This document shows positions 17,893 through 63,980 of a stretch of DNA of 64,000 bases, one piece after another. The stretch is taken from the NCBI GenBank assembly GCA_951406725.2, contig OX597836.1, positions 28,272,001 to 28,336,000 on the forward strand, given 5' to 3'. Numbering within the stretch: the stretch's first letter is position 1; each line of letters starts with the position of its first letter. The stretch comes from Octopus vulgaris (Eukaryota). The notes below the pieces were generated by a model. That model was not told the DNA's origin. It saw nothing but the letters and a program-made list of their open reading frames with translations, and searched no databases. The position numbers and the translations under genes are program-made.

Positions 17893-18087
17893 GTCAAGAA
17901 TTAAGACCCAACCATATCGGTATTGTAGGACATAGAGGAGACCCCGATAAGCAGGCGTTTTTGGTCTGCTTTTTCAAGATGAGTCGACAGCTTCATGTAC
18001 GACGAACACGTTCTGCACGGCGGCAAATGGATACTCGTACAGCAGTTTCACGTCGCGATGATTCTCAATCAACATGGAGACGGACAC
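17893..18087 (+). CDS. BMP5-8: BMP5-8 copy A, exon with furin site
   Basis: ttgtAG/GTtagt. GQELRPNHIGIVGHRGDPDKQAFLVCFFKMSRQLHVRRTRSARRQ...WRRT contains the KQ.F.V.FFK motif and an RRTR/S cleavage site. Confidence 0.92.
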
Positions 18088-18315
18088 GTTAGTTATTTAT
18101 TTTCTTTTGCTGTTCTGCTTTGCGGTTACAATCATGTCACAAAAGTCAGGTGGCGGCCCAATGATAACATGTACTACAGTGGAACTAAAAATATTCTGCA
18201 GTCACTAATAATCATTATGTACCAAAGGTTTCATTCAAAGATTGATTGCAATATGTAATAATGTTAATAATAATAATAATAATAATAATAATGATGATGA
18301 TGATGATGATGACGA

Positions 18316-18362
<47 letters not shown>

Positions 18363-18863
18363 ACGGCGACGACGACGACGACAATAAGGCGAGCTGGCAG
18401 AAACGTTTACACACCAGGCGAAATGCTTAGCAGTATTTCATCTGTCTTTACATTCTGAGTTCAAATTTCACCAAGGTCGAATTTGCCTTTCATCCTTTCA
18501 GGGTCGATAAATTAAGTACCAGTTGCATACTGGAGTCAATCTAATCAACTGGCCCCCTTCCCGAAAATTTCAGGCCTTGTGCCTAGAGTAAACGAAAGCA
18601 GCGAACTGGCAGAAATGTTAATTACGCTGGGTGAAATGCTTAGCAGTATTTCGTCTGTCTTTACGTTCTGAGTTCAAATTCCACCGAGGTCGACTTTACC
18701 TTTCATTCTTTCGGGGTTGATAAATTAAGTACCAGTTGCATACCAGGGTCGATGTAATCGACTGACCCCCACTTGCCAAAAATTTCAGGCCTTGTACTTA
18801 GAGTAGAAAAGAATATTGATGTTTTGTTCTACATGCTTCACTCTCTCTGTTCTCTTCTTCTAG

Positions 18864-18931
18864 GACGTTATGTACGACCAGTCTGCCAAAGAAACACAAT
18901 GTATGTTGACTTTGAAGCTTTAGGTTGGCAG
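18864..18931 (+). CDS. BMP5-8: BMP5-8 copy A, start of mature cystine-knot domain
   Basis: ttctAG/GTaagt. RYVRPVCQRNTMYVDFEALGWQ matches the C....LYV.F..LGWQ motif. Confidence 0.93.
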
Positions 18932-20057
18932 GTAAGTCTTTTGTTTCTCTCTGCATTTTGGGTCTGTGTAGGGAAGGAACAATGTCCCTCACCATTTTCG
19001 TTTCTCTTGTTTCTGTCACGTCTCCTCCCTGCCTGAATTAGTGGGAGAGATACTTTAGGTAATGTTGTAAATTAGGAATGTTTCAGTTCAGGTAAGATAT
19101 ATGTTTTTCTACTCTAGGCACAAGGCCCAAAATTTTGGGGGAGGGGGCCAGTTGATTAGATTTATCCCAATACGCCACTGGTACTTAATTTATCAACCCC
19201 AAAAAGATGAAAGGCAAAGTCAACCTCAGCAGAATTTGAACTCAGAACGTAAAGACAGATGAAATATTGCTAAGCATTTTGCCTGGCATGTTAACATTTC
19301 TGCCAGCTCACCCGCTTTACATTGACAAGACTCTAAGCAGAAGGCCCAAAATTTTGGGGGAGGGGCCCAGTTGATTAGATCAACCCTATTATGCAACTGG
19401 TACTTAATTTATCGACCCCAAAAGGATGAAAGGCAAAGTCAACCTCGACAGAATTTAACTCAGAACATAAAAACAGACGAAATACCGCGAAGCATTTCGC
19501 CCGGCATGTTAACATTTCTGCCAGCTTGCCACATTTCATATAAGATATACTGTGTAAGTCCTTGTCTGGTTAAGAATTTTGCTTTGGAACCATGTGGTTT
19601 AGGGGTTCAGTCCTACCATATGGATGCTGTCAAGTTGGCATCCTGAACCGTAACCATGGGTTGAGCAATATTTTGTGAGTGAAATTGGTCGACAGAAACT
19701 AAACGAGTCCATCATATGTATATGCACGTATCTGTGTGTGTGTGTGTGCATGTCTGTATGTGTATGTATCTGTGTTTGTACATGTATGCATCTGCATGTA
19801 TATGTGTACATATCTGTATGCATGTGTATCTATGTATCTGTGTGCGTGTGTGTTTGTGTTTGCATCTATGCATGTCTGTATTTGTGTGTGTATATGTGGC
19901 TGTGTGCATCTATGTAGCTATGTGTGTATCTGAGTGTACACGAATCTGTGTGTCTCACAAATTTATAACCCCTTTCCTATGTAAGTAATCAATTAAAAGA
20001 CGTAATTATTTCTTCATTTGCTTTTTTCTTTATTTTCTCCTTTTTTTTCCCCCGCAG

Positions 20058-20318
20058 AGTTGGATCATTGCACCTGAGGGTTACTCTGCATTCTACTGCG
20101 ACGGCGACTGCATATTTCCTCTCGGTCTGAACATGAACGCCACAAATCATGCCATTGTACAACTTCTGCTTCATACAGTGAAATCTCAGACAATGCCTAA
20201 GCCCTGCTGTTCCCCTACCAAACTGAGTGCCATCTCTGTGCTCTACTTTGATGATAATTCCAATGTCATTCTCAAGAAATATCGAAGTATGAAGGTGAAG
20301 GCTTGTGGCTGTCACTAG
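20058..20318 (+). CDS. BMP5-8: BMP5-8 copy A, terminal exon (mature domain)
   Basis: ccgcAG acceptor. [22 protein letters not shown]...[10 protein letters not shown]...[40 protein letters not shown]; the [17 protein letters not shown] segment is typical of BMP5/6/7/8/Gbb. Confidence 0.96.
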
Positions 20319-20704
20319 TGTTCACCTCATACCTCTACGTCTTGTAAGACTGTATTGCACACACACACATTCATTGGACTCCTGCTAGCCGAAAGACATT
20401 GATGCATGTGTGCATGGGACGGCTGAGTGCACTTGCAATGCCACTGTCCTGTTTTTTATTTTTCTTTTGCGTTTTCAATTTGGGTGTGCAACAAATATTG
20501 CACATTTGCAGGTATCAGGATTTAGTATTTTTTTATGTACAGTCTCTATGGACATATGATGAATGAACGTGTATGGCTGTGTGTGTGAGTATGGCTCTGT
20601 GTGTGAGTGTGTGTATGCTTGTATATATCTGTATACCTCTTTCAATTCATGTTACAGTTGGTGAGGTCCTCAAGAATACTGCTGAAAACAGTAAAATGCA
20701 AAAA

Positions 20705-20710
20705 AATAAA
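20705..20710 (+). promoter_or_regulatory. candidate polyadenylation signal of BMP copy A
   Basis: AATAAA about 390 nt after the stop codon, just past the end of homology with copy B. A-rich context, so the call is weak. Confidence 0.35.
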
Positions 20711-20896
20711 CTATACACATGCCTATACTCATAGGCGCAGGAGTGGCTATGTGGTAAGTAGCTTGCTTATGAACCACATGGTTCCGGGTTCAGTCCCACT
20801 GCGTAGCACCTTGGGCAAGTGTCTTCTACTATACCCTCGGGCCAACCAAAGCCTTGTGAGTGGATTTGGTAGACAGAAATTGAAAGAAGCCAGTCG

Positions 20897-20941
<45 letters not shown>

Positions 20942-26269: not shown

Positions 26270-27553
26270 TCAGTAGTCGTAACTGGCGACGGTTGGCATG
26301 ACACCATAGGCAAGATCAGTCCGTATCTGCCATCGAAGAGAATGTCTCGGGTTTTGTGAGGGTATCACATAATTATTGGGCACGAAAGTTTTCCGTGGAC
26401 GGCTTCCTATGACGTCGTGTTTGGCAATTTTCTCTTTAATGCTCCACCGAAGGGCGTTGTGATTATTTTCACCGGGAGGCTTGTGCAAGTTCCAGTAGTT
26501 CTGAAATTCATGGAACCGACTCACGGGGTCTGTCTTTCTGTTTTTCTTCAACCTCGGCGGTGTCGGAGTGACTATAATCGTGGACTTGGGCCGGCTATCA
26601 CAGGAACTTGGAGATCTCGGATAGAAATAGCCGTCTCTATTTGTTATCTCACTCAGACGATTCTGGTACTCAGCGGGGTCAGCGATACTGCTACAGCAAC
26701 TGCCACAGACACTACTACTACTGCTACTGATACTACACACAGATTCACTTTCGTCGACGTAACGTTTACCATCGGGGCCTTTGCGAGACACCTTCCTTTT
26801 GGTAACAAAAGTGTTTAGCAGTGGAGGTTTTTCGGTGTCGGTGGAGGCAATTTGTGATGGTTTGGAGACCGATACTTGTGATGAGAGGGAGGAGGAAGAT
26901 GACGAAGGTACAACTTGACGAGACCAAGCGTTTTCTTTGTTCTTGGGATGATCAAAACTATTTACCTGGTTTGGCTGCAGAACGTTTGTTCTGGTGAAAG
27001 TTCGAAGGAGATTCTCCTGCTTTTCATATTCCGTTTCCGATTCATTAGTCAGTGGCTGTTGAGTGTATGTGTATTGATGGTTGAGTGTCATACCCGAGTG
27101 ACCATCCACCTTATTGGCACTGTTGAACAATTGACAGCTTCTATAAGCAACGTGTTCGTAACTTTCAACTGTATTCTGGGGCCGATTGTGAGAAACGGTA
27201 ACAGACGACGGCTCCATGGAATTAACAGAACAATAATTACCTGTGTGAGTTAGATATGACTTAGCATCTTCAACGTTCTCGGCAGCTGGTGATGTGAACG
27301 TTGGAGAAGTTATAGAAAAGGGTGCAGGAGGGGACGACGAAGACAAGTTTGGGCAAGTGACCGGTGAGTTACTGGAAGAAGGGGAAATTGTAGTGGATTT
27401 ATCAACATTCTGAAGTGAATTGTAACTACTTTCTTTCATCAAATTTAGAATATCTTCTCGAAATTCACGCAAAGTACTCTGGTCGATATCCTTAATCCCA
27501 AATCGCGCAAGTTCGTTTCTTATTTCTTCTTCTGAAAATTCAAACGAAGCCAT
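26270..27553 (-). CDS. HYLS1: HYLS1 (hydrolethalus syndrome protein 1) homolog, single coding exon, 427 aa
   Basis: ATG at 27553. N-terminal FSEEEIRNELARFG helix, Ser/Pro-rich linker, and a C-terminal HYLS1 box KTDPVSRFHEFQNYW...PGE..H.ALRW.I...PNNYVIP....R.SLRW.IR.DLA matching the known HYLS1_C pattern. Confidence 0.92.
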   Translation of the reverse strand: MASFEFSEEEIRNELARFGIKDIDQSTLREFREDILNLMKESSYNSLQNVDKSTTISPSSSNSPVTCPNLSSSSPPAPFSITSPTFTSPAAENVEDAKSYLTHTGNYCSVNSMEPSSVTVSHNRPQNTVESYEHVAYRSCQLFNSANKVDGHSGMTLNHQYTYTQQPLTNESETEYEKQENLLRTFTRTNVLQPNQVNSFDHPKNKENAWSRQVVPSSSSSSLSSQVSVSKPSQIASTDTEKPPLLNTFVTKRKVSRKGPDGKRYVDESESVCSISSSSSSVCGSCCSSIADPAEYQNRLSEITNRDGYFYPRSPSSCDSRPKSTIIVTPTPPRLKKNRKTDPVSRFHEFQNYWNLHKPPGENNHNALRWSIKEKIAKHDVIGSRPRKTFVPNNYVIPSQNPRHSLRWQIRTDLAYGVMPTVASYDY

Positions 27554-33712: not shown

Positions 33713-33993
33713 TCATAGTTCTTCTTTCTTGGTTCTGTTGACCTTTACAGTTGCTCTGAGCTGCTTCTTTCCTTGACCCCTTTTTCTAGATCCCTTCGGC
33801 TCCTTTAAATATCTCATTTTGGGGTGTGGGACATTTCCATGGCACCCTTGCATGAGGTGCTCAGCTGCTCGGAGTCCAGATCTAAATGCCCCTTGGATGG
33901 TGCCGAATCTGGTGGAGTCAGTATAGTCATTGGCGAAGTAGATGTGAGGACAGACCGGCTTGGAGACAGCATCCCACTGGGTTTGGGACATAC
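33713..33993 (-). CDS. amine oxidase-fold protein, terminal exon 7, ending KEEL
   Basis: Pyrimidine tract + gaaAG. PV.PHIYFANDYT....GTIQGAFRSGLRAAEHL is equivalent to FAGE.T...GT..GA..SG.R.A. The seven exons sum to 1578 nt = 525 aa + stop. Confidence 0.92.
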
Positions 33994-36096
33994 CTTTCAG
34001 TCGGAGAGAAAAAGATGAAAATGAGAAACAATATTTCTGATACAGAATGCTGAGTGAAAAGGATAAAAAGAAAAAAAAAACCCTGCATCAACAACGTTAT
34101 AACAATCTTTAGTTTTATGTGTTTTTCTTCTTCTGAAGGAGAAAATGAAGAAGACAACGAAGATGACAGCAATGAAGATGACAACGATGAAGAAGAGAAG
34201 GCGACAGCAATGAAGACAGGGTGACAAAGACGACGGCGACAAAGATGACGGAAACATTGACAACAAAGACAATGATGATCATGAAGAAAGAAAGAAAGAA
34301 AGAAAGAAAGGAAGGAAGGAAGGAAAGAAAGACGGAAAGAAAGAAAGAAAAAAAGAAAGAAAGAAAGAAAGGAAGAAAGAAAGAAAGAAAGAAAGACAGA
34401 AGGAAAGAAAGAGAAAGAAAGACGAAGAAGAATGAAGAGAGAATGAAAAGAAGAACAAAGGAAGAATAAAGAAAGAATGAAGAAAGGAACAAAAAAGGAA
34501 GAAGATCGAAGAAGAAATTACTCATTAAGCCCCTAAAGTGTGAAAAGTGAAGTTGACTGGAACAGGATTGAAACTCCCTATGTAAGGGAGGAGGACCTAA
34601 TTAAATATAACATCGTCTCTCCTTGTATATGTTGACCTACATAACAATAATGTAGTTGTTTTGTATAAACATAAGCAGTGAATATGTATTAATGTGATCC
34701 CATACAGGCTTTCTGCTTTGATTTAGGGACTAGGACCTAACTGTGGGTATGTCTCCATAGTTACACAGACAAGGGGTCCAAACAGAATCATTGTCACCTG
34801 AGAAATTTCAAAAAATTATTCTCTGAAATAATAAAAGAAATAGGCACAGGTGTGGCAGTGTGGTAAGAAGTTTACTTCTCAATGACATGGTTCCGAGTTC
34901 AGTTCCACTGTGTGGCACTTTGAGCAAGTGTCTTCTACAACAGTCCCAAAACTTTAACAACAAAAGCTAATATGGGCCCCACTCCAATGGTCATATGGAT
35001 CCTGGTTGAGAACCATCAGACTAAACCTTTGAAGCTGGTGCCCCAGACTGGCCACTTTTCAATGATTGAAACAAGTAAAATATAGAACATAAATTAAAAA
35101 GAAAACTCTGTCTCAAAGGTCTGTGAAATGAGTCAACACCATTAACAGAAGGAGAAGAACGAGGTGGGGTAGGGGTGGTATATATGTTAAATCTTTGGAG
35201 ACAAAACTTAGTGATGTTTCTACACTAAAGCAAACAAACATTTTTACAGATTGGCACCATTTCAACAGAGGCAGCAAAACTTGTAGTCTTATAGTTAAAA
35301 TAGGACCTGACATCTTGCAAAGCTTGTCACTGGTGACCGAGAGAGTGGCAAAAGGGTTGTGCAAGCATTTATCACTTAACCCTTTTGATACAAATCCGGC
35401 TGAAACTGCCTCTGGCTCTGTAGTACAAATGTCTCATTTTCATAAGTTTTGAATTAAAATCTTCCACCAAACCTTTGTCACAATTTATGTTCCTAACACA
35501 AGCTGAATGATAACTAAGTTATTTTACTAAATTCTTTGTTACATTTAAAGTAATTGAAAGAAACACAGAGCATCTCAAAATAAATACAGTAATGAAAGGG
35601 TTAAAAGCACTCATGCTGGTGCCATGTAGAAAGCAGTAGTGATGGTGCCACATTAATCCTTTTGATACCAATCCGGCTGAAACCAGCTCTGGCTCTGTAG
35701 TACAAATGTTTTGTTTCCAAAAGTTCTGAATTAAAATCTTCCACCAAACCTTAGTCACAACTAATGTTCCTAACACTAGCTTAATGATAACTAAGTTATT
35801 TTGCTAAATTCTTTGTTACATTTAAAGTAATTGAAAGAAACACAGAGCATCTCAAAACAAATACAGTAATGAAAAGGTTAAAAGCACTCATGCTGGTGCC
35901 ATGTAGAAAGCAGTAGTGATGGTGCCACATTAATCCTTTTGATACCAATCCGGCTGAAACCAGCTCTGGCTCTGAGTACAAATGCCTTGTTTTCAAAAGT
36001 TCTGAATTAAAATCTTCCACCAAACCTTAGTTGTAATTTACGTTCCTAACACTAGCTTAATGATAACTAAGTTATTTTGCTAAATTCTTTGATATA

Positions 36097-36464
36097 TCTT
36101 TATATATAAAAGTCAAGTTGTGTGTCTGTCTCCTACGATTTAGATTCCTAACTACTCCCAGATTTTGCGGTGCAGTTTAACCAAAACCGGGTATCTTATA
36201 GTCGTGATTCATATCGAGCCCTTCTGGGTATTAGCGCACGTCTACGATTTTTTTTTTCATTTTAATGCATTTTTTTCGCTATTATATAAGGGAAGAAACT
36301 CTCTAAAAATGTCTACAATGAGTCAACGATTTAAAAAAAAATTTACCATCATTTTTTTTCCATTTTTAATGCATCTTTTTGCTATTTTCTGGCTATAACT
36401 CTCTAAAAATGCTTATATAGTTATTTCCCTTACAAACCCGAGCAACGCCGGGCGATACTGCTAG
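36097..36464 (+). mobile_element. non-autonomous Helitron nested in a piggyBac-type MITE
   Basis: Same TC...hairpin-CTAG ends; splits the host MITE at an A|T site. Confidence 0.85.
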
Positions 36465-36742
36465 TTTAAAATAATTGAAAGAAACAGAGCACCTCAAAAT
36501 AAATACAGCAACGAAAGGGTTAAATCCAAAGACATACAGATGTCTCACTATTCATTTCATATCTTGATCCGTTTTGTATTTTATAAACTCCTATGGTGAT
36601 GGCTGCATAGTGACTATTCAGGCACAAGTAATGATGAAAGTAAATTAGACCTTATCAGGTTGAATGTGAAATGGCCATCATATGAGAAGATGAGGCTTTC
36701 ATGTCACACACACACACACACACACACACATCTAGCAAAAGA

Positions 36743-37243
36743 ATACCCTCCATCAGGCATTTGCCATATCCTGAACGCCTTACTTCCCTGGGTATGGACA
36801 CATTGAAACTCCGACGTCTGGCAGCTGACTTGGCAGACACCCATAAAATTATCAACCATCGCACAAACAATAACTCTGAGCACCTCTTCAAACTCCACCC
36901 ATCTAACACCCGTGGACATATTTACAAAGTAAGAAAACAGCACAGCTCCCATGACTTCAGGAAACATTTTTTCACGCTGAGAGTTGCTGAAGCGTGGAAC
37001 AAACTGCCGGCATCGGTTGTTAGTTGTCGGAGCACTGCATCCTTCAAAACTTCCATGCTTCCTGAGATTCGCCAACACTACACCTGATTTTCTCCCCTCC
37101 ATACACACGCAAGCATGTATCTGACTCATACACTGTTCACTTTCCAGACATTTGTACATTACTGCATGTACTTTATATGCACTTTCTGACAAGTTGTGGT
37201 GCACCTGAGCACTGTATACAATAATTTCATTATTATTATTATT
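36743..37243 (+). mobile_element. CR1/L2-group LINE 3' fragment with (ATT)n tail
   Basis: YPERLTSLGMDTLKLRRL..DL...TRGH...FFTLRVAEAWNKLP. Confidence 0.87.
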
Positions 37244-37244
37244 A

Positions 37245-37396
37245 TCTCTCTCTATATATAAACGGCAGTTTGTCTGTGCGTTTTCTGTGTGTCTGTTTTC
37301 TCGTACCCTCACTCTGACCACGGCTTTATAACTCTCTAAAAATGCTTTATAGTTATTTCCCTTACAAACCTGAGCAACGCCGGGCGATACTGCTAG
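37245..37396 (+). mobile_element. mini-Helitron (~150 bp)
   Basis: A|TC...GAGCAACGCCGGGCGATACTGCTAG|T; ends about 30 bp from the exon 6 donor. Confidence 0.75.
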
Positions 37397-37427
37397 TTAT
37401 AACTAAAATTGACATGAGAATACTCAC

Positions 37428-37553
37428 CGACGGTGGGGTAAGAGAGAAGTCCCTGACTGAAAGGATCAGCTGCCCAGTTACTTGTTGTCACACTCAAGAT
37501 GGCATCTTTGGACAGATTCTTCAAATGAAACATTGCTGCTAACCGTTCCAGTG
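37428..37553 (-). CDS. amine oxidase-fold protein, exon 6 (not in the ORF track)
   Basis: ttctAG/GTgagt. ALERLAAMFHLKNLSKDAILSVTTSNWAADPFSQGLLSYPTVG carries the T.W..DP...G..S motif. Phases 1/1. Confidence 0.9.
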
Positions 37554-37959
37554 CTAGAAGAAACAGTCAAGTGTATTGTTAGTTATTGGAGTCTTGTATG
37601 GAAGTTATTGTCTTTCAGACAGTCAGACACACAAACGACATTACTGTTTGACCAACACCTTGAAGCAAACAAAAAAGCCTTTATGTAATCACTCAACCTG
37701 CTAGAAATAGCAGCCAAATCTCCCTTAATCACACTCACAACAATAACAAAAAAAAGACAGGATGAAGTGTCACAAACGGAATACCTCGGATCATGAATCT
37801 ACTCAATCAAGGCTGACCTGGGGTTAAACAAGAACTAATATTCTCTTTATAAAATAGTTAAAATAGTTAAATAAATTTCTTTAAGATTTCCTCAAAATCC
37901 TGTTAATATTGTTTCAGCTTTGATGTGAAAAGAATATGGAATTGTGTAAATATTTGTGA

Positions 37960-38506
37960 GTTAAGTTAAGTTAATTTTTTGGCTCAAAAAGCAAAAAGCA
38001 AGGCCATGTAGGGGGACATGGAGTTAGGTACAGGGAGGGTGTTCATGCAAAGAGTTCAGGCCATTTGTGGTCAAGGGAGACTTTGAACCGAGCGGTCATC
38101 GGCATCTTCACTATCTCGTCCGGCAGCTTATTCCACGGATCCGCAACCCAGACGGAGAAAGCCCCTATCCTTCAATTGAGATGAAATTGTCGCAGATAGA
38201 GCTTTTCGGAGTGACCCCGCAACCGACGCTCTGGAGCAGGAGTGAAGAACAGCTCTTTCGAGAGGTTACACTTTCCGCTTATGATGTTGTGAGCAAGAAT
38301 GAGATCACCACGGCATCGGCGTTTTTCTAGAGAATAAAGGTCGAGCGTCTTCAGCCTTTCTTCATAAGACAAATGCGTGAGACCAAGAACCATGCGGGTA
38401 GCCAGCTTCTGGACTCTTCCGAGATGATGTATGTCTTTGAGGAGATAAGGAGAAGAGGCTTGAATCCCGTACTCCAATATGGGTCTCACCAGCGGGACTT
38501 TATGAT
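37960..38506 (-). mobile_element. CR1 LINE 3' fragment with (TTAAC)n tail
   Basis: RPILEYG...YEERLKTLDLYSLEKRR.RGDLI...LRGH; frameshifted. Confidence 0.87.
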
Positions 38507-39338
38507 TTTCGTGAGAGGAACAGTTAGGCCTCCAATACTGAGGAATCAGGAAACTGGAAACTTCATCTAAACGAACTCCTCTAATACCATCTAAGGGTGA
38601 AAGATTTACAAATGAAGTTTAATAGATAAACATAGAGCACTGACTCAGTTCATTTGACTGTAAATAAATGCTCTAAATAAATGACACAAACTTTAAGGGG
38701 GGATCTTAAGGCAATTGTAGTTTGGAAACTTTAACAAGTAAATCCTTTCACTGGTTCTTGTTTCCAAGAGGGAGATGGATGGTGGGGTGTACTCTTCACC
38801 AAATATGTGATGAAAGACTTAAACTGGATTTGAACTAAAGATCTGTGATTTGGTAGTTCAGATACAATATCTGCTCTGACATGCAGCCCCCATGTGGCTT
38901 ACTGGGTTACCGTATTCAGCTCACAATTGTAAGGTCATGAATTCAATTCCTAACATTGCTAGCATCGAAAAATGGACACTAATTGATGATGATGGTGGTG
39001 GTGATGGTGATGATGATGATGGTGGTGGTGGTGGTAATGCTGATGTTGTTGTTGTTGTCTTCCATACAGCATCAAATTCCTATTATTCCAAGTTTTCTCC
39101 CAGATGTTTTGTACCCCCATAACAAATACCACATATTCAACACAGCAGGCTCACCTCCTGCCAGCCTTTATATGTGCCCCCTACATTCAATCCCCATCTT
39201 TCATTATTCACACAACACAAGGAAATAAGGTTTGAAGTAACAGAGTTACTAGTTACTTATTCGCAAGACGAGGACAATACACAGAAGATCCCATGTCCTT
39301 TGATATTTGATATGAATAAATAGTTTTAAGATACGAAC

Positions 39339-39569
39339 CGATAGTTTTGAGTTGGGTGTCAGAGTAATTTCCAAACTTGGTAGCAGTATTGCCTTGGATA
39401 AAGGTGGTCAAATACGGATCCTTACGACGAGACAACCAGCCAGTGTTTAACCAAGTGGTCATCAATCCGATTTCACTCATATCGGATGCGGCGAAATGGA
39501 AGAGTTCTGTGTCCTTTGGCCAAAATATTGAAGCAAATTTAAAGACAACGCTATTCACACTGCTAACCT
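39339..39569 (-). CDS. amine oxidase-fold protein, exon 5
   Basis: gtacAG/GTtcgt. VNSVVFKFASIFWPKD...YLTTFIQGNTATKFGNYSDTQLK is equivalent to NKV.L.F...FW and SDE. Phases 1/1. Confidence 0.85.
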
Positions 39570-41806: not shown

Positions 41807-42054
41807 CTGTCGAGGACTTCCTGGAGCCCTTCTTCAATAACTGTATTAGGGAGCAAGTTAAAGCGAGATTTCAAGGATCTGCAAGAGATTAACTTTGGGG
41901 CCAGATTGTATCTGGCTAAAGTCAAAGTATTGAAGACATTCGGTGGAAGGGTCTCTTTGAAAACCGGTTGCAGTCGATATAAATTGTCAACGGCTTCTTG
42001 CAATGAAACATCCCTGGTTGGTGAACTGGAAGTCTGGACAGCAGCCATTAAAAG
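41807..42054 (-). CDS. amine oxidase-fold protein, exon 3
   Basis: Polypyrimidine tract + caacAG and GTaaca donor. ...RDVSLQEAV...VIEEGLQEVLDR is equivalent to D.SL and G...L. Phases 0/2. Confidence 0.85.
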
Positions 42055-42879
42055 CTGTTGAAGGGGAAAAAAAGAGATAATTATAAGAAATGGATTACAT
42101 TGTGATTATAGTCAGAAATACAAAAAAAAGGGTTAAAAAAGATGATTGTTACAACTGCGTGGCCATTGCCGCTGGACTGGCTCCTGTGCAGGTGGCACAT
42201 AAAAAGCACCATCTGGGCGTGGCTGTTGCCAGTACCACCAAACTGGCCCTCATGCCAGTGGCACGTAAAAGCACCCACTACACTCTCAGAGTGGTTGGCG
42301 TTTGGAAGGGCATCCAGCTGTAGAAACTCTGCCAGATCAGATTGGAGTCTGGCTCGCCAGACCTCAGTCAAATCATCCAACCCATGCTAGCATGGAAAGT
42401 GGACGCTAAATGATGATGATGATGATGAAATGCCAGATTAGGGCTCCCTTGAGGCTTTAGCAACAACAAAGGAAACAAGTTATACAAGAGGGTGCTGAAA
42501 AGTTCCTGGCTTTAAGGGTATTGCGAAAGGCCAAATTGGAAGCTCAACCTTTGAAGTTCTTTCACAGGGCTTAGTAAAACTGAAGGACTGCTGCAATAAG
42601 TGTGTGACTCTGAGAGGGGAATATGCTGAATAAAATCATAATTGATCCTCCTGTATCTTCTTTTACCTAAAACCAAGAAATTTTCAGTACTACCCCATAT
42701 ATGTAACTACTCTTCCCCTCAAAAACACACTGACTGTAGTGAGGTTTGAACTGGCCATGGTGAAGTCTGTAGTCCAACACTTTAACAACAAGACCAATGT
42801 GCCTCTTTTGTTTCTATTTGTAGATTTAAAACTCAATTGTTCTTTAGTTGGATGTAGCCATTCTGGAGCAGCATTAATA

Positions 42880-43190
42880 GGACCCCCTTCGGTCATGAAG
42901 GACCATGGGATTACACCTAGAAAGTTACCCTCTGAGGTTGTTTATGGAAGACCAGCAGTCACTCATGCATACCAGCCTCTACTCTCCACACCACCAATGT
43001 TATCCAAGGGAAAGGCAAAGGGGCCGATACAGCTTGGCACCAGTGACGCCACGACTCATTTCTACAGCTGAGTGAATTGGAGCAACGTGAAATAAAGTGT
43101 CTTGCTCAAGAACACAACACACTGCTTGATCCAGGAATTGAACTCATTACCTCATGATTGTGAGCCTAACGCTCTAACCACTGAGCCATT
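42880..43190 (-). mobile_element. tRNA-headed CORE-like SINE
   Basis: Minus strand reads ATGGCTCAGTGGTTAGAGCG...GAGTTCAATTCC...GTGTTCTTGAGCAAGACACTTT. A related copy is at 23120-23270. Confidence 0.65.
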
Positions 43191-43814
43191 ATTATATCCA
43201 AGACAGGATCATTGAGCCAACGAGGAATCCACTACATCAGTCATTAGCAAACTACAGCCAGTGGGCCACAGGCATGATGTAGTGGATTCCTCTTTGGCTC
43301 AACAATCCTGTTTTGGATATAATAATGCTGCTGCAGCATGGTCACATCCAATTAAATTTTAATTTTAAATTATTTAAAATTTAATTTTAATTCAAATTAT
43401 TTATGCAGCCAGGAGGCCACACACAACCCACAAGGTTTTCTGAATGGCACACATAAGCACGTTTATGTTAATTCAAACATGATTGTTATAAAGACCTAAA
43501 TGTGTCTGCATTTAAATTCTATCTTGTTTTCGTCTGAATGCACCAACCACATGCCATATCATTATTGTTGCCGTGTTGTACATTTCTATCAACCTGCCTG
43601 TCACAGACCCTGATTTTATGACCTAAACTTCCTGCTTTGACGAGATCCTAACTAAAACTGTCAAACAAAATTTTATGTTGATTTTGTTCCAAACATGAGA
43701 TTAAAAACGACAAGGTTATTTTACTGAATTCATCCTTATTTTTAAAATTAACTGAATCAAAAGCAGTGTATTTTAACAGAAATATGGTGATGAAAGGGTT
43801 AAATGGCTGATTTA

Positions 43815-44050
43815 AGGCGGCGAGCTGGCAGAAACCTTAAGCACGCCGGGCGAAATGCTGAGCGGTATTTCGTCTGCCGCTACGTTCTGAGTTCAAATTC
43901 CGCCAAGGCCGACTTAGCCTTTCATCCTTTCGGGGTCGATTAAATAAGTACCAGTTACGCACTGGGGTCGATATAATCGACTTAATCCGTTTGTCTGTCC
44001 TTGTTTGTCCCCTCTGTGCATAGCCCCTTGTGGGTAGTAAAGAAATAAGG
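43815..44050 (+). mobile_element. tRNA-derived SINE family 2 with Nin-like domain (copies at 3572-3805 -, 6712-6947 -, 11756-11956, 53118-53330, and others)
   Basis: GGCGGCGAGCTGGCAGAA...GAGTTCAAATTCC head followed by GTCGACTTTGCCTTTCATCCTTTCGGGGTCGAT..AAGTACCAG; many dispersed copies. Confidence 0.85.
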
Positions 44051-45211
44051 GTTAAATGGCTGATTGTAGATCAGTGGTGCCCAACCAAGGTCTACATGGC
44101 CCTTGGGGGTCCATATAAGATTTTTTGTTGTTAAAATTTATGTGCAATAAATAGTGATCAAAGAAACTTGACTGCTATTTCTAGCAGGTCGAGCAACCAT
44201 AGAGAAGCCCTGTCATTGGTATGTCATGTTATATGTGACAAGGTATGTTAGCCTGACCTTGTTGTGTGGAGTGGGTATAAGACAGCAGAGAGGAGATATG
44301 AAGTATGTAGGAAAATATTTAGGTTGAATGTAACCAGTGAAATAATCACTTTGTTGGTCTATATCTATTTTATTAAATTTGTCATAAAGACAGAACAAAG
44401 ATTAGGTAGCTTTGCGGGCTGGACAAGACGTTAATGAAATGAATGATAAGGATGGGAGAAGACAGAAAGCGCCCACCGACCCTCTGCTTCTCTGTAACAT
44501 TGTTCTTTCACAAACATACATTGAGGTATTAAACCTCTTACATTTTTCAATATTTAACCCTTTAGTGTTTAAACCGGCCAAATCCGACCCAATATATTCT
44601 ACATGTTTTATATTCAAACTGGCGATATCTAGCCTCTCACTCCTAACCTACAATGTCATTCTGAAAATAAACAATCACATCATTGAAACCTCAAAGATAT
44701 AAGATAATGCATGATTAATTCAAAACAATTTGAGTGAAAAGGTATTACATTTAACAGAGTAATCTGAACACTAAAGGGTTAAACATATATTGAGGTATTA
44801 ACCCTCTTACAATTCTTCAATATTAAACATGCAATCTTACGGTTCCAGTACATTTTACGTCAACTGACCACGTGTATTTGTTTATATATGATCGTCAATT
44901 TCCGTAAAAAAACTTTTATTTTTTTACATATGGGGTTGGGGGGAGGGAATGGGATCTTTGGGGTTAGGGTTACGGTTTGGGGTTGGGACCCTAACCCTAA
45001 CCCTATTAAACATATACATTGAGGTGTTAAACCTCTTACAATTTTTCTGCACAAACAATTTATTTGGACTAAAAGGTCCATTACAAATTTAACACATACT
45101 TGAGGCAATAAACCTCTTATACTAATCCCCGCTTAACTCTCTTGCGTTATCAAAGTTGAATATTTTGGTAGTTAGTATATAGAAGATTGTGATTGGTAAT
45201 GAATAACTCAC

Positions 45212-45396
45212 CTGTTGATGGATCTGAGCCAGATTTTCAAACTCCAGATCACGGTAGACTTTGTTTGTGTTACCATCAATCAACTGCTTGAATTCAATAC
45301 GCTTTGGACTCACTTCAAATGGACCCAAAAATTCACTCAACATGTTCTCAGGGTCATCATCATCAAACATGACAATTCCCAGATCAGCTTCAAGAC
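45212..45396 (-). CDS. amine oxidase-fold protein, exon 2
   Basis: aatAG/GTgagt. GLEADLGIVMFDDDDPENML occupies the DLGAxW position. Phases 1/0. Confidence 0.85.
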
Positions 45397-46734
45397 CTAT
45401 TTAAAAAAAAAAAAGGAATATATTTTACCTTGTTAAGTTAGTTGATGATTAACATTTCTTACAGTGAGTTCTTCAGATTTTCTGTGGGGGCAGAAAGAAA
45501 CATGTTTTTACTCTGTGAAACTGAATTTATTTAGTCAGGAATTTGACACTAGAAAATCTAAAGACTTGTTTTTGATTGATGTTCCAAAAAGGAAAAGAAA
45601 ATTTACTCAAGACAACATCATCATTTAACATCCACTTTTCCATTCTTGCATGGGTCAGATGGAAATTGTTGAGGCAAGTTTACTACAGTTGGATGCCCTT
45701 CCTGTCACCAACCTTCACCTGTTTCCAAATATGTTCTTCAGTGTGAAAACTAAAAATGAACAACACTGCTTGTATGATGGTGATGCTCGTTTACAACCAT
45801 AACATGATGTCAAAGCAACCAGACACAAGAAACACACATATATAAACACATACGCACACACACACATAGATCGATAGACAGACAGACAAAACAGATAGAC
45901 ACAACATACAGAAACAATAGGTTTCTTTCAGTTTCCACCTACCAAATCCACTCACATTTCTTTGATCAGCTCGGGGCTATAGTAGAAGACACTTGTTCAA
46001 GGTGCTGCAATGTGGGATTGAACCTGAGGCCACATGGTTGGGAAGTAAACTTCATCACCACACAGCCATGTCTGGACCTTTCAACAACGAAAGAGTATTC
46101 TAAGCTAAACAGGCAAACAGCTTAGGAGTGGCTGTGTGGTTTCAAAACATCTCCCATTAACTCTCTGAATACCAACACTCACAGAAATAAAAAAATACAT
46201 TAGCACAGTGCATCCCAAAATGAAAAATACCCCACTTTAAATATTGGGTAAATTTTTGCACACCTACTTCTTTATTAATGAGAAAACACCCTATCAGCTA
46301 AGGGATCCTGTCTTGCAAATAACTGGTGCAGGTGACATGTAAAAAGCCTCCAGTGTAGTCTGTAAAGTGGTTGGCATTTGGAAGGGGCATCCAACCTTAG
46401 AAATCACATGAAAACAGACTGTAGACCTTGGCACAGTCTTCTGGGTTGCCAGCTAATGTCAAACCCTCCAATCCATGCCAGCAGGGAAGACAGATGTTAA
46501 ATTATGATGATAGTTCTTATGATAATTCCCATTTCTTTGTCAAGATAAGTTTTACTGGTTTAAAATCATATTTATTTTATGAAACAATTTGCCTGCTCCT
46601 TTCCCAACCCCCTGAAGACATACACTGAATTTAGCACATTGTAAATTTTCACTGTTGCATCTCCAACCTTTCTTTCTCCCAGCATGGAAATGGTTGCCAA
46701 GTTAAATGTACCATTCTGAAATTAAACAAATATT

Positions 46735-47124
46735 GGATCTTTACCTTTTGATTGACAGATTTACAAAATAATCTTTTGTAACTAAACACTTTCAAACTTC
46801 GGACACTTGTAGAATGTGTCATACAAAAAAAAAAATCTTTTACTCTTAGCGTTTTTGAGAAAAGCTTATATTTACGAACTTATTTCACGTTAAAGTTGTC
46901 GTATTTCGGTAATTTCAACCAATCAATGACATGTATTCAGCTGAATAAAATTACTGCTATTGTTTGTCAACAAGAAACAGATTCCGGCGGTGTATATTTC
47001 GTTTGTCACTGTTATTTATGACAACCCTAACCCTAAAACCTTAAAGCTAAAACCAGTACAAACGCATGAACGATGTCATACAAAATTTTTTTTTTTAAAT
47101 CTGTCAGTCAAAAGGTAAAGATCC
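46735..47124. mobile_element. sister MITE subfamily (GGATCTTTACCTTTTGA TIR)
   Basis: TSD CAAATATT; shares internal blocks and CCCTAA repeats with the family above. Confidence 0.88.
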
Positions 47125-47630
47125 CAAATATTAAATACATGAAATACAGGTACTTTACAAGAATGACACCTTTATTAATACTGTACAGTGCAAAGTTCTA
47201 CTGAACTAGTCTGGTCATCATCATCACCATTTAACGTCCAATCTCGATGCAGGTATGGGTTGGACCGTTGGACACGGATCTGGCTAGCAGGGAGATGTCC
47301 AGATTCCAACTGTCTGTTGAGGTATGGTTTCTATGGCCAGATGCCCTTCCTAATGCCAACCACTTAACAGAGTCTTTTCGGTTTGAACGGCAGTTTTTAA
47401 CATAATTACTTTTTACGTGTCACCAGCACAGGTACGTTTACACAGCACCAGCACAGGTGCATTAACAAAGCACTGACACAGATGCTTTGTAAGTGGCACC
47501 AGCACCTGGAAGGACAAGCCTGTATGTGTGGAAGACAGCAGTTTTACTTAGCCTGAGATGTCTTATCAAGTACAACAAATTTCCACATCTCCTGGTTCCT
47601 TGTCATTTCCTCTGTAGGAATCTGAAGTTC

Positions 47631-48028
47631 GGCTCTTTTCGGTTTGAACAGCAGTTTTTAACATAATTTCTAGGTAGTTAAAAAGTTTTAAACTTCGTAT
47701 ACTGGTAGAATGTGTTTATAAAACATCTTTTTCTCTTGGCTTTATTGAGAAAATTCTATAGTTTGTAAGATATTTGTTGTTTTTTTTTTCTTCAATTTCT
47801 GCAATTTCAACCAATCAATGACCGTCTATTGAGGTGAAAACATCCCTCATTTAAGAAACAGATTGGGTTTATTTACATTTGGGAAGAAAAAAAGATACCC
47901 TTCCCCCACCCATAACCCTAACCCTAAAACAGATTGAAATGCAATAGATCGATACTAGGGTCATAATTATGGGTGACAATTTCATATGACACCGCTAGAA
48001 AAAACTGCCGTTCAAACCGAAAAGATCC
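47631..48028. mobile_element. MITE with GGATCTTTTCGGTTTGAAC-type TIRs and 8-bp TSD
   Basis: TSD TGAAGTTC on both sides; internal CCCTAA repeats. Confidence 0.9.
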
Positions 48029-49610
48029 TGAAGTTCCTGCTTGTAAATTGGTGTGGATTCTAGGAAATTCCAGACCATTACTGTCAGGAAAGTCAGAGCT
48101 GTATCTGTATTCTGTTCACATCCAGGCTACATTATAATGGTGTTTATCATAAGGAGGACAAGAGCCCTAGGAAAGGTTTGAGAGAACTGAAAAAGGGGAC
48201 AAATAAATTGCAATGTTTAATGAATTTTAAATGACTTTAAACTTTAAAAAAAAAATAGGCATCAGAGTAGCAATGCATACTCTGTGCACAGATAAGTTCT
48301 TTTTGCAAATTATAGTGCAGCTTACAATGTGTTGCTTACCCATGCTTTTTAATTAAACTGAATTATTAATTTTTTTTTTTAAGAAACCAAACATTGGCAA
48401 AGATTATGACTATGCAAAATTAATTTTTTTCTTCTAGAAATTTTCTAGCAAATTACCTGGGCTAGTGAAATAGGATTAAATATTCAATAATTTAAGGCTG
48501 TAGGAGAGAACTGAGCTTTTGACAAGAATTTTTTATTTAAGAGTATTTCCAAGAACAGAACAACCTCACCATGTGAATAAAAGTATTGTGTATTTAATAA
48601 TGAAAATATTCCTGAAAGTTTAGAATAAGTTAATTACAAATATACAAAAAAAAAAAACATCTTTCAAACCGAAATTTGTCACATATTTCTCTTTTACATA
48701 ATTGTAATTTCTCATGCATAAAACACAAGACTACAGGGGAAAAAAAAGTCAAAAAGTTAAAAATGAAAATTGAAAAACACAATCCTATTCAAAACCTGCA
48801 AACTCAAAGGAATAAGCATTTTAGGCAAAACAGAATTTCCGACGTTATTGTATAGGGTTGCCATTATTATTATTTAATCATAGGTCAAACTGGCTCATTA
48901 CCTTTATTTAAAGGTCGTTTTTGTTGTGACATCTCATCACACCTCCCTCCCCCACCCCGAAACAATCTGACATTACAAGGAATCTTTAATTTTAAAGTGA
49001 ATATGGTACGTTAAAATCAAAGATCACCAGGATTATTCAAAGAAACCTTCCTTTTTTTAAGCTAGTAAAATATGATGTGAGAATTTGGCTGTTATTTCTA
49101 GCAAGTTCAGCACTAAGTGATTATTAGATTACTAGCTGGAAAGAAAGTTAATTTTTTTTTTTTTTTTTTGATTTTTCCATATTAAATTCCGATAGAATCG
49201 TAATTCACGCCATCTGAAAGGTATCAGGAGACAATTTCGATTTCATCTAAAAATACCCATTTTTTCAGAAACTTACGGGATGAAAAACAGTAACTGTTTG
49301 TACAATTTGATTTTATTGACTAATTTACTTTTTAGAAAAAGAATACAATAACAAACTTTTTTAAAAAAAAAAAGGTAATTTTCTGGCCGTGACAGAAGAA
49401 AAGCACTTAATAAGGTAACACTTAAGATTTTACGTCGCTAAAATAGGAAGATACTAGAATGGTAGTTTTCCTTAATAGCGATATCTGTTTTACATAAGAA
49501 GACTGTATAGATTTGTTTGTCCGTTGTTATAATTAGTTCACTGTCTTTAATTAAACCTATTAAAATACCAAATGACCAATAAACATGATGCGGAAGCAAT
49601 TTCTTCTTAC

Positions 49611-49875
49611 CTTTTGCACGGTCAAAGTTGATGCGGTCAGTCCACACACGACCCCCGTAGCGCTCCCTTCGTGCTTCTAACACAGTAACATCCCACTGGC
49701 CAGAGTTGGAGAGGGACCTGGCCGCTGCTAATCCAGCCACTCCAGCCCCGACCACCACTACAGAGCCGAGAGACTTAGCAAGCTCCTGTGATTTTTTGCC
49801 GTTGTCTGTTTTCGAACCTTCGACTGCATGTGACCAGACTAAACAGAGTAACAACACAGTAAATGAGACAACCAT
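49611..49875 (-). CDS. flavin amine oxidase-fold protein, exon 1 (signal peptide + FAD Rossmann motif)
   Basis: MVVSFTVLLLCLVWSHAVEG is a hydrophobic leader. VVVVGAGVAGLAAA...VTVLEAR..YGGRVWT gives GxGxxG plus the GG motif. GTaaga donor, phase 1. Confidence 0.92.
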
Positions 49876-59695: not shown

Positions 59696-59699
59696 TGTA

Positions 59700-59730
<31 letters not shown>

Positions 59731-60259
59731 GTATGTAGAGGTTATGAGAGGTAATGGTAATTTTTTTTTATATGTATATATGTATGTATGTATATATATG
59801 TGTGCGTGTGCATGTTGTGCTACAAACACACACTGTATATTTTCTAATTTGTTCTTGCTTTGTTGTTTTCAGCAGTATTCTTGAGGACCTTACCAACTGT
59901 AACATGAATTGAAAGAGATATACAGATATATACAAGCATACACACACTCACACACAGAACCATACTCACACACACAGCCATACACATTCATTCATCATAT
60001 GTCCATAGAGACTGTACATAAAAAAATACTAAATCCTGATACCTGCAAATGTGCAACATTTGTAGCACACCCAAATTGAAAACGCAAAAGAAAAAGAAAA
60101 AACAGGACAGTGGCATTGCAAGTGCACTCAGCCGTCCCATGCACACATGCATCAATGTCTTTCGGCTAGCAGGAGTCCAATGAATGTGTGTGTGTGTGTG
60201 TGTATGTGTGTGTGTGTGCGCAATACAGTGTTACAAGACGTAGAGGTATGAGGTGAACA

Positions 60260-60520
60260 CTAGTGACAGCCACAAGCCTTCACCTTCATACTTCGATATT
60301 TCTTGAGAATGACATTGGAATTATCATCAAAGTAGAGCACAGAGATGGCACTCAGTTTGGTAGGGGAACAGCAGGGCTTAGGCATTGTCTGAGATTTCAC
60401 TGTATGAAGCAGAAGTTGTACAATGGCATGATTTGTGGCGTTCATGTTCAGACCGAGTGGAAATATGCAGTCGCCGTCGCAGTAGAATGCAGAGTAACCC
60501 TCAGGTGCAATGATCCAACT
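60260..60520 (-). CDS. BMP5-8: BMP5-8 copy B, terminal exon
   Basis: Reverse complement of 20058-20318 with one synonymous change (CCT/CCA). Intact ccgcAG acceptor. Confidence 0.95.
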
Positions 60521-60867
60521 CTGCGGGGGAAAAAAAGGAGAGAATAAAGAAAAGAGCAAATGAAGAAATAATTACGTCTTTTAATTGATTCCTTACATAG
60601 GAAAGGGGCCAGAAATGTGTGACACACACAGATTCATGTATACTCAGATACACACATGGATACACAGATGCACACAGCCACATACACACACACAAATACA
60701 GACATGCATAGATGCACACACACAAACACATACATGCGCACACAGATACATAGATACACACGCATACAGATACGTACACATACACATGCAGATACACACA
60801 TGTACAAACACAGATACATACACATACAGACATGCACACACACACAGATATGCGCATTTACACATGA

Positions 60868-60982
60868 TGCAATGATCCAACTCTGAGGGGGGGAAAAAGG
60901 AGAAAATAAAGAAAAAAGCAAATGAAGAAATAATTATGTCTTTTAATTGATTCCTTACATAGGAAATGGGTTATAAATTTGT
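60868..60982 (-). pseudogene. truncated duplicate of the BMP terminal-exon acceptor plus its first 5 codons (SWIIA)
   Basis: About 100 nt of intron end + cctcAG|AGTTGGATCATTGCA, about 360 bp upstream of the functional acceptor of copy B. Confidence 0.85.
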
Positions 60983-62019: not shown

Positions 62020-62087
62020 CTGCCAGCCTAAATCTTCAAAGTCAACATACATCGTCTTTCTTCGACAGACTGGTCGTACATAACGTC
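62020..62087 (-). CDS. BMP5-8: BMP5-8 copy B, start of mature domain
   Basis: ttctAG/GTgaga. RYVRPVCRRKTMYVDFEDLGWQ. 68 nt, the same length as in copy A. Confidence 0.93.
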
Positions 62088-62155
62088 CTAGAAGAAGAGA
62101 AGAGAGAGAGAGAGAGAATGAAACGTGTAGAACAAGACGTTGATAATCACCAATA

Positions 62156-62186
<31 letters not shown>

Positions 62187-62524
62187 CATCATAGGATGGT
62201 AGGCCCACATAACCAACTGACCAACCCACTTCTGTTGTCCACTGTCAATATGTGAATAGACCATCATCATCATCGTCATTTAATATCCATGTTCTGTACT
62301 GGTATGAATTGGACAGTTTGACAAAGATCTGCTGGGTTCTAGGACTGCATCACACTCCAGTGTCTGCTTTGACATGGTTACTATGGCTTGATGCCCTTCC
62401 TAATACCAACCATTTTACATTGTGTATTTGATTCTTTTTTGGTGCTTCTGGCACTATTGAGAGTGCAATGTAGCTCACAAGATTACAAAACCCAAGGAAG
62501 GTGAAAAGTGAGCATCCTTCTATT

Positions 62525-62681
62525 GCGTCCCCAAAGTCCATCCCCTCCTCACCGTGGTGGGGACGCTGGCAACGGGTAGTGTCAGAGCTATGCCGTCAGG
62601 AACTTCAGTTCCTGGTAGGGCCACCCAAGGCAGATTGGTCTGACACCGAGTGGTATTAGGGCCACAACCCGGCAGACGGGG
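62525..62681 (+). ncRNA. HDV-like self-cleaving ribozyme fold (possibly decayed) at the 5' end of an RTE-derived element
   Basis: P1 GCGTCCCC/GGGGACGC; L3 TCACCGT; P1.1 CA/TG; branched P4 (CGGGT/ACCCG, GTGTCAGA/TCTGACAC, CAGGAAC/GTTCCTG); J4/2 GCAGA; P2 CCCC/GGGG. P3 has a T-T mismatch. Confidence 0.6.
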
Positions 62682-62923
62682 CTCTGGTGAAAATCCTTGG
62701 AGTGTCTACTTCAGCAACCGGCAGCTCCTCGGTCGTTCTGCTCCTGCGTCTGCGGAAAACAAGATGTCTCTACATGCGGGATTGTTGGGGACCGCTTGTC
62801 AAATCCACATATTCCCACGAAACTTCTTCCATGATTTCTCAATGGCGAATACAATGCCTCAAGGGTGGTGGAAGAAGCCGACTCAACCCGCCTCAGGGTG
62901 AATGTCGCCACAAGTAAAGTAAG
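62525..62923 (+). mobile_element. ~400-bp non-autonomous RTE-type retroelement
   Basis: GC-rich island. The GAGCTATGCC...TAGGGCCACCCAAGGCAG segment resembles RTE/BovB/Expander 5' UTRs. Ends in a short AAGTA-type tail. No TSD seen. Confidence 0.55.
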
Positions 62924-63283
62924 ATGGTGATTGAAATATGCAACATGAGGTTCATGTTGTACAGGAGATACAAGGCTACTTACATTTAGGAAAGAGAGTG
63001 AGAATGAATCAGTGATACATAGTGTGAAAGGGATAAATAGCAGTGGAAAAAACCCCTACATGCAATCATTTAGCTCCTTCCAAGATCACAGCTGTTTATG
63101 GGAGGAGCAGATACATATGCAACAGAGTAAACTAAATTCAGAGATATTGACATTGTGGATCTAGACTAGACATCATACTATTTTTAAATCTCACAATGTG
63201 AAATATTCAGCAACAGTACTTTGTAGTAAAGATTGCTTGCCAACATAACATGGCAGTCCTGGGGGTCCACAAGCAAGATATGG

Positions 63284-63682
63284 GGATCTTTTCGGTTTGA
63301 ACAGCAGTTTTTAACATAATTTCTAGGTAAATAAAAAATTTTAAACTTCGTATACTGGTAGAATGTGTTTATAAAACATCTTTTTCTCTTGGCTTTATTG
63401 AGAAAATTCTATAGTTTGTAAGATATTTGTTGTTGTTTTTTCTACAATTTCTGCAATTTCAAACAATCAATGACATGTATTGAGGTAAAAAACATTCTGT
63501 GCCGTATGAATATGTCCCTCGTTTAAGAAACAGATTGGGTTTATTTACATTTGTGAAGAAAAAAAGATACCCTAACCCTAAAACAGATTGAAATGCAATA
63601 GATCGATACTAGGGTCATAATTATGGGTGACAATTTCATATGACACCGCTACTAAAAACTGCCGTTCAAACCGAAAAGATCC
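63284..63682. mobile_element. MITE, same family, in a BMP copy B intron
   Basis: Near-perfect TIRs; TSD AGATATGG on both sides. Confidence 0.92.
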
Positions 63683-63785
63683 AGATATGGTTGGGAACCT
63701 CTGGTCTAAACAATGGGCCACCATATGACTTTGGTCATGACTGTAACCTCAACGGAAAACATGGCATAGAAAATAAATAACTAAC

Positions 63786-63980
63786 GTGTTCGTCTCCACG
63801 TCCAATGAGAATCATCACGATGTGAAACTGCTGTACGAGTATCCATTTGCCGCCGTGCAGAACGTGTTCGTCGTACATGAAGCTGTTGACTCATCTTGAA
63901 AAAGCAGACCAAAAATGCCTGTTTATCGGGGTCTCCTCTATGTCCTACAATACCGATATGGTTGGGTCTTAATTCTTGAC
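63786..63980 (-). CDS. BMP5-8: BMP5-8 copy B, furin-site exon (gene continues beyond the window)
   Basis: ttgtAG/GTtagt, 195 nt. GQELRPNHIG...FFKMSQQLHVRRTRSARRQMDTRTAVSHRDDSHWTWRRT. Confidence 0.93.

Follow-up and report, generated by a model that had tools for sequence, protein, structure and literature searches.

The question raised by this locus is whether two closely similar BMP5-8 genes that face each other are two working genes or one gene assembled twice and, if they are two, when they arose and why their 3′ ends are so much alike. Members of the BMP5-8 family are secreted precursors that are cut by furin-type convertases and signal as dimers. The window analyzed is a stretch of 64,000 nucleotides (nt) of Octopus vulgaris DNA (assembly GCA_951406725.2, contig OX597836.1, positions 28,272,001 to 28,336,000), in which copy A lies on the plus strand and copy B on the minus strand. 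Judged from their sequences, A and B are real paralogs and not haplotypes, and both are open, constrained and provided with the same knot core. A joint account in which an inverted duplication preceded the split of O. vulgaris and O. bimaculoides, copy A went through a burst of change followed by conservation, conversion acted on the 3′ end and both copies are functional ligands is considered fairly probable.

On every feature tested the copies belong to BMP5-8. Both last exons match Pfam TGF_beta (PF00019, E ~1e-28) and encode an identical protein segment that carries six of the seven cysteines. A search with exon 4 retained five proteins among nine candidates, namely O. vulgaris P0001, O. 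bimaculoides P0002 and P0003, Argonauta hians P0004, and P0005. Exons 2-4 of window A match P0001, while P0002 and P0003 have seven cysteines each and mature domains equal to those of window A and window B. The propeptide (PF00688) is found in exon 2 of A and in P0003, the part of the propeptide of window B in view being the end encoded by exon 4, and the RXXR sites are the same in both types. The best solved relatives in the PDB are BMP6/7 (170-176 bits, E ~1e-50), with BMP2 behind them (139 bits, E ~1e-39). A wider search gave 27 homologues, among them molluscan relatives from Lottia (BMP5-8), Haliotis, Patella and Mytilus; those specifically named are BMP7-like, BMP6 or BMP5-8. Variants of SAPxFLLD and QPFxFF, described as prodomain landmarks of BMP5-8 (PMC3285362), were recognized by eye in P0001-P0004 and in exon 4 of the window, as were hydrophobic N-termini in P0001-P0003. 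The combination of propeptide, RXXR site and seven-cysteine knot is shared with molluscan BMP5-8 or 'BMP7-like' proteins and with human BMP6 and BMP7.

All four cephalopod-type proteins examined have a second RXXR cluster, five residues ahead of the first cysteine, whereas a single site is given as the lophotrochozoan norm (PMC3285362). In both copies this cluster falls in exons 4-5 and resembles the Main/Shadow arrangement of insects. The Asp that precedes the second Trp of finger 1 is replaced by Ser or Thr in the same four proteins.

The sequence-only reading had proposed two spliceable copies placed tail-to-tail about 40 kb apart, equal in exon sizes and bracketing HYLS1 and an oxidase-fold gene, and this layout is borne out. 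The matching exons measure 195, 68 and 261 nt, AG is present at all six paired acceptors and GT at all four paired donors, neither spliced frame contains an internal stop, and the stops of the two copies are 39,942 nt apart in the window sequence, with both other genes between them. Intron 4 is 776 nt long in A and 1698 nt in B, intron 5 is 1126 and 1499 nt, and the repeats inside differ. The earlier statement that the introns carry different insertions was thus correct, but they are not unalignable everywhere away from the exon edges, as A and B can be aligned at 89.5% identity over the ~350 nt that end intron 5. The window covers exons 2-6 of A and exons 4-6 of B. Since exon 1 of A lies before base 1 and the window edge falls 20 nt upstream of the 195-nt exon of B, with exons 1-3 of B beyond the window end, the 5′ end of neither gene is in view. 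The parts of the two copies are as follows (UTR, untranslated region; SINE, short interspersed nuclear element).

5882..6065, plus strand: copy A exon 2, prodomain, 184 nt (tblastn of P0001/P0002, AG/GT edges, Pfam TGFb_propeptide E 2e-11)
14686..14837, plus strand: copy A exon 3, prodomain, 152 nt (tblastn of P0001/P0002, AG/GT edges)
17893..18087, plus strand: copy A exon 4, 195 nt, with the prodomain end, first RXXR site and spacer; four of the seven A-derived residues
18864..18931, plus strand: copy A exon 5, 68 nt, with the second RXXR site completed, first cysteine and finger 1; three A-derived residues (R>Q, K>N, D>A)
19567..19956, plus strand: copy A intron-5 repeat, putatively SINE-like, with a body to ~19710 and then a TG/TA-rich tail
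20058..20318, plus strand: copy A exon 6 coding part, 261 nt, cystine-knot core, stop TAG (Pfam TGF_beta)
20319..20710, plus strand: copy A 3′ UTR common to B (8 differences in 372 nt), its end adjoining AATAAA at 20705
63786..63980, minus strand: copy B exon 4, 195 nt
62020..62087, minus strand: copy B exon 5, 68 nt, with Argonauta-like residues
60868..60982, minus strand: copy B decoy (duplicated) acceptor and first 15 nt of exon 6, within intron 5
60521..60869, minus strand: copy B repeat tail and proximal acceptor, 89.5% identity to A 19710-20057
60260..60520, minus strand: copy B exon 6 coding part, 261 nt, differing from A at a single synonymous site (Pfam TGF_beta)
59864..60259, minus strand: copy B 3′ UTR common to A; the first AATAAA of B is further on, at 59639

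Two observations concern the gene models of copy A. An AG/GT-bounded segment of 61 nt at 3268-3328 (plus strand) matches an extra exon of O. bimaculoides P0002 at 16 of 21 residues, below the level of the neighboring exons, and is either a weakly constrained exon or a model artefact. The O. vulgaris model P0001 splices exon 4 straight to exon 6 (18087-20058, plus strand), which gives a prodomain-only product of 324 amino acids (aa) that terminates in the last exon; the exon-5-skipped form could be a genuine isoform or an error of the model.

The separation of the copies is most apparent in exons 4 and 5, where they differ at 10 of 195 and 6 of 68 nt, compared with 1 of 261 nt in the coding part of exon 6. 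In exons 4-5 the synonymous divergence (dS) is 0.168 and the nonsynonymous divergence (dN) 0.036. Over exons 4-6 there are seven nonsynonymous and ten synonymous differences (omega 0.19, Fisher p 0.001), that is, seven changes in 173 residues, three of which fall within the short mature domain of 107 aa. Both types occur in O. bimaculoides: window A corresponds to P0002 at 282 of 285 aa and window B to P0003 at all 141 C-terminal aa, the seventh diagnostic residue of P0003 is likewise of B type in the alignment, and all seven diagnostic residues are kept in that species. P0003 has an N-terminus distinct from that of the A type, so B has a first exon in O. bimaculoides. The synonymous divergence and the 20 differences in 123 nt of intron-4 flank, set against a heterozygosity of 1.22% reported for an O. 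vulgaris reference (10.1101/2023.05.16.540928), together with the different intron repeats and the presence of both types in a second species, uphold the earlier argument against a haplotype artefact.

Change has been asymmetric. All seven replacements between A and B are derived in A, since Argonauta has the B residue at seven of the seven positions and P0005 at six. Outside the signal region, A-only columns number 8 of 322 and B-only columns 0 of 322 (p 0.008), and with the signal region included the counts are nine and one (p 0.02), gapped columns being skipped in both cases. The A-only columns are clustered, with 7 of 88 in exons 4-5 against 1 of 234 elsewhere (p 0.0006). One replacement lies nine residues before the first RXXR, three are in the spacer between the RXXR clusters and three come just after the first cysteine. 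The A protein of O. bimaculoides carries the same seven replacements, which places the burst before the species split and indicates that its products were held afterwards. On these comparisons, copy B kept the ancestral protein and both copies have been conserved since. New furin sites, a new N-glycan site and a large charge shift were looked for in A relative to B, and none was found. The idea that D>A affects an invariant residue was rejected, the position being D in 19, S in 5 and A in 2 of 26 homologues.

The age of the duplication is bracketed by phylogeny. The tree was built under LG+G4 from 13 of the 27 homologues and both window copies, without a BMP2/4 outgroup, and the exon-2 columns were dropped because P0003 is mis-modelled there. 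The A copies are monophyletic (100/98), all five Octopus rows come together at 94/89, and Argonauta is their sister (99/98). Grouping by species, as expected of within-species duplication, is rejected (approximately unbiased test, p-AU 2.3e-5), and a clade of Argonauta with B is weakly rejected (p-AU 0.0375). The protein encoded by exon 6 does not vary among the four Octopus copies of the two species. From the tree, these tests and the two types in O. bimaculoides, we infer that the duplication predates the split from O. vulgaris, put at ~34 Mya (million years ago; 10.1101/2023.05.16.540928), and it is probably younger than the split from Argonauta. A usable date for the latter was not found in the portions of the argonaut and vampire-squid papers available. 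The former description as a cephalopod-lineage duplication is too wide, as both copies nest inside Octopus and Argonauta lies outside. Conversion could mask an older age, and copy counts outside the two Octopus species rest on representatives of 90% protein clusters, which may conceal paralogs.

Divergence between the copies drops toward the 3′ end, from 16% (20/123) in the intron-4 flanks to 7.6% (26/343) over the final 350 nt of intron 5 and 1.4% (9/633) in exon 6 and the UTR. Synonymous differences number 1 of 56 in exon 6 and 9 of 60 in exons 4-5 (p 0.017), and the longest identical run of third positions spans 65 of 173 (p 0.037). A crossover between inverted copies flips the spacer and does not delete it. 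The graded divergence, seen in one genome, suggests gene conversion between the 3′ ends of the copies, a process that does not need direct orientation (PMC3966223).

The repeat tail bears a further trace of exchange. The passage from body to tail is natural in A, while in B the tail starts abruptly at a microhomology of 2 nt and the body is absent. Through this microhomology the tail is joined to a duplicated acceptor (60982-60868), located 362 nt upstream of exon 6 and endowed with an intact CAG and pyrimidine tract. Its use would lead into 82 codons of Cys-rich repeat, with a stop near 60636 and no knot. The decoy is best explained by a switch of template from A to B, although a tandem duplication within B may also account for it. 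B has no replacement of its own in exons 4-6, whereas ~7.6 would be expected in exons 4-5 under neutrality since the junction event (P 5e-4, an assumption-laden value), which suggests that the true, proximal acceptor of B is used.

The proposed history would start from a single ancestral octopod BMP5-8 gene beside HYLS1 that was duplicated in inverted orientation. Copy A went through a short burst of ~8 replacements, seven of which lie near the furin-site spacer and where finger 1 begins, and was conserved thereafter. The facing copies would have exchanged sequence by non-allelic gene conversion, latest over exon 6 and the proximal 3′ UTR, and an older illegitimate event would have left the duplicated acceptor in B. 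Such conversion would keep the 3′ cores of A and B alike. By family knowledge, the products of both copies are most likely secreted BMP5-8 ligands, matured by furin and alike in the core that serves dimer formation and receptor binding, which act on Smad1/5/8 as homodimers or together with BMP2/4. Dosage or a division of expression is the probable reason for the retention of both, and any difference in processing or range should be slight; their distal 3′ UTRs differ, the first AATAAA being at 20705 in A and at 59639 in B. By analogy, homodimers and heterodimers of A and B are plausible. As the last exon is identical in protein, pairing of A with B would yield a dimer much like either homodimer. 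In the fly wing disc the active form is the Dpp/Gbb heterodimer (10.1101/2022.08.04.502599), so that pairing with BMP2/4 may matter more than pairing between A and B.

Several observations weigh against this history. The changes in A are mild: the R>Q site is Q in the majority of homologues (18/26), seven of the 26 have S or A at the D>A site, and K>N is the only A replacement unique among them; furin sites, the seven cysteines and the sequon are the same in A and B, and the net charge shift is 0-1. P0003 is without a normal exon 2, having repeat-like sequence in its place and an insertion of two residues, and a separate B-type O. vulgaris protein was not found among the homologue search matches. 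The Octopus-only clade is not starred in the tree. The relationship among the three copies of the acceptor is star-shaped, at 6, 7 and 11 differences per 100 nt, from which neither direction nor order of events follows. The synonymous changes of exon 6, 1 against 4.2 expected from the adjacent intron rate, do not depart significantly from expectation (p 0.075), and the near-identical tract is exon 6 plus the UTR, with edges at the acceptor and at the AATAAA of A (20705), as purifying selection would also give. These last two points speak for real paralogs whose 3′ identity results from purifying selection on the cystine knot and UTR alone, with no conversion, as does the exon 6 protein, which differs from that of Argonauta at just 3 of 86 columns. 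This explanation is unlikely, given the significant synonymous deficit relative to exons 4-5, the alignment of the intronic repeat tail at 92% against 84% for the intron-4 flanks, and the duplicated-acceptor junction, which shows that a copying event took place here. The 1.4% difference over exon 6 and the UTR is also near the heterozygosity of 1.22% reported for an O. vulgaris reference (10.1101/2023.05.16.540928), as would be expected of an assembly artefact, be it an uncollapsed haplotype or a chimeric or polished 3′ end. Yet divergence is about ten times greater in exons 4-5 and the flanks, the repeats inside the introns are not the same, the two copies face opposite ways on either side of single-copy genes and both types are present in a second species; an artefact can hardly be the answer.

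The duplication might also be older, octopod- or coleoid-wide, with its apparent age reset by repeated conversion as in BMP8A/B and Lefty. The 5′ non-repeat sequence of intron 5 gives no alignment at all between A and B, which is more decay than a dS of 0.17 predicts; paralogs could be hidden in the clusters of Argonauta (two members) and P0005 (seven members); and conversion is reported to mislead trees of this kind (PMC12344233). Against this stand the rejection of the Argonauta+B clade, the A-type residues found at none of the seven positions in Argonauta and at one in the more distant P0005, and the presence of only one non-Octopus octopod cluster among the 27 matches, so that a greater age appears decidedly unlikely. 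An improbable alternative is that copy B is silent or decaying, either because the decoy diverts splicing or because its prodomain exons are damaged. The intact upstream acceptor leading to a knot-less reading, the repeat-like sequence in place of exon 2 in the O. bimaculoides model and the position of the 5′ exons of B outside the window fit such a fate, but the splice sites and frame are intact, identity to O. bimaculoides B is complete over 141 aa, and replacements particular to B are absent from exons 4-6 where several were expected under neutrality in exons 4-5, with the assumptions noted for that figure. The preferred reading remains that of an inverted Octopus duplication with two functional ligands and conversion at their 3′ ends.

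The space between the copies is occupied by two genes.

26270..27553, minus strand: HYLS1, single coding exon, 427 aa (Pfam HYLS1_C E 5.6e-25; named orthologues)
33713..49875, minus strand: flavin amine oxidase-fold gene (polyamine oxidase/LSD1-like), seven exons, 525 aa
49875-49611, 45396-45212, 42054-41807, 41410-41169, 39569-39339, 37553-37428 and 33993-33713, minus strand: exons of the oxidase-fold gene

HYLS1 evolves fast, with 49% identity to the Argonauta protein. No second copy of its open reading frame, or of the two oxidase exon regions tested out of seven, was found in the window. Linkage of BMP5-8 with HYLS1 is indirectly indicated to be conserved in O. vulgaris, O. bimaculoides and A. 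hians. The oxidase-fold protein has a hydrophobic N-terminus and a C-terminal KEEL, both kept in its relative P0034 (362 of 532 residues identical), and is a candidate flavin amine oxidase of the lumen of the endoplasmic reticulum. Among solved folds, polyamine oxidase and LSD1 come nearest to it, at no better than E ~1e-25, and in its C-terminal flavin adenine dinucleotide motif one glycine is replaced by Asn in the window copy. A 30-nt minisatellite at 57063-57935 (~29 units by length) contains long stop-free frames on both strands, for which a coding role is unsupported. Short open reading frames are present at 14187-14564 (minus), 36686-37087 (plus), 38172-38618 (minus) and 51618-51968 (minus), two of them showing a 93% match with each other over 419 nt; all four resemble what we take to be C-terminal fragments of reverse transcriptase from long interspersed nuclear elements.

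The pair is probably undescribed, although of a familiar kind of duplication. A description of two Octopus BMP5-8 genes was not found in the literature searched, which consisted mostly of titles and the beginnings of abstracts, and the supplements of the 2015 O. bimaculoides genome may list both; the parts available of 10.1101/802215, PMC6581508, PMC11202624 and PMC9635652 do not mention the pair. Both O. bimaculoides proteins, of A and of B type, are already in public annotation. BMP signaling in cephalopods has been studied mostly via Bmp2/4 (PMC6581508). Probes, read mapping and knock-outs that target the last exon in Octopus will hit both BMP5-8 genes, and it is the diagnostic sites of exons 4-5 and the distal UTRs that tell A from B. 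Flies, beetle, wasp and mammals have already furnished lineage-specific BMP5-8 duplicates, so that the finding is useful to the specialist and not surprising.

Among known duplicates, Drosophila gbb/screw (PMC3744649) and Nasonia gbb1/gbb2 (PMC4218986) are lineage-specific like the Octopus pair, with one copy ancestral and the other faster; a gbb1/gbb2 pair is also described in Tribolium (PMC4218986). The screw/gbb type of rate asymmetry is present in Octopus, whereas deep divergence of the ligand domain is absent (3 differences in 107 aa). Screw and Nv-Gbb2 diverged strongly and took on distinct roles in the early embryo, while A and B differ at just 7 of 173 residues and are identical in the protein of the last exon. 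The comparison with screw/gbb made by the sequence-only reading is for this reason given up in favor of mammalian BMP8A/BMP8B as the nearer analogue, an inverted pair in concerted evolution by gene conversion (PMC2720389; PMC12344233). As in Octopus, two BMP5-8-class genes are inverted, separated by unrelated genes and partly homogenized. The origins are independent, and the spacing is ~235 kb in BMP8A/B compared with 40 kb here. BMP8A/B exceed 97% identity across consecutive exons and the intron over more than 100 million years, a level that the Octopus pair reaches only in the last exon and UTR, and exons 4-5 of Octopus group by paralog. Set against the screen of PMC2720389 (more than 97% over two consecutive exons and their intron), the pair falls short, with 98.6% in exon 6 and the UTR, 91% in exon 5 and most of intron 5 unaligned, so that by analogy it would work partly like BMP8A/B and is not classed as a member. 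A stronger and unlikely proposal would make it a full invertebrate counterpart, in which conversion locks the dimer and receptor core, the furin spacer and base of finger 1 escape and were selected in A for different processing or range, and output is tuned in B by the decoy acceptor and in A by exon-5 skipping to the prodomain-only product. Were this true, a single architecture would have arisen twice within one BMP subfamily, and the pair could predate the genus Octopus. The pair offers a young natural test, parallel to BMP8A/B, of how conversion and asymmetric divergence partition a signaling ligand.

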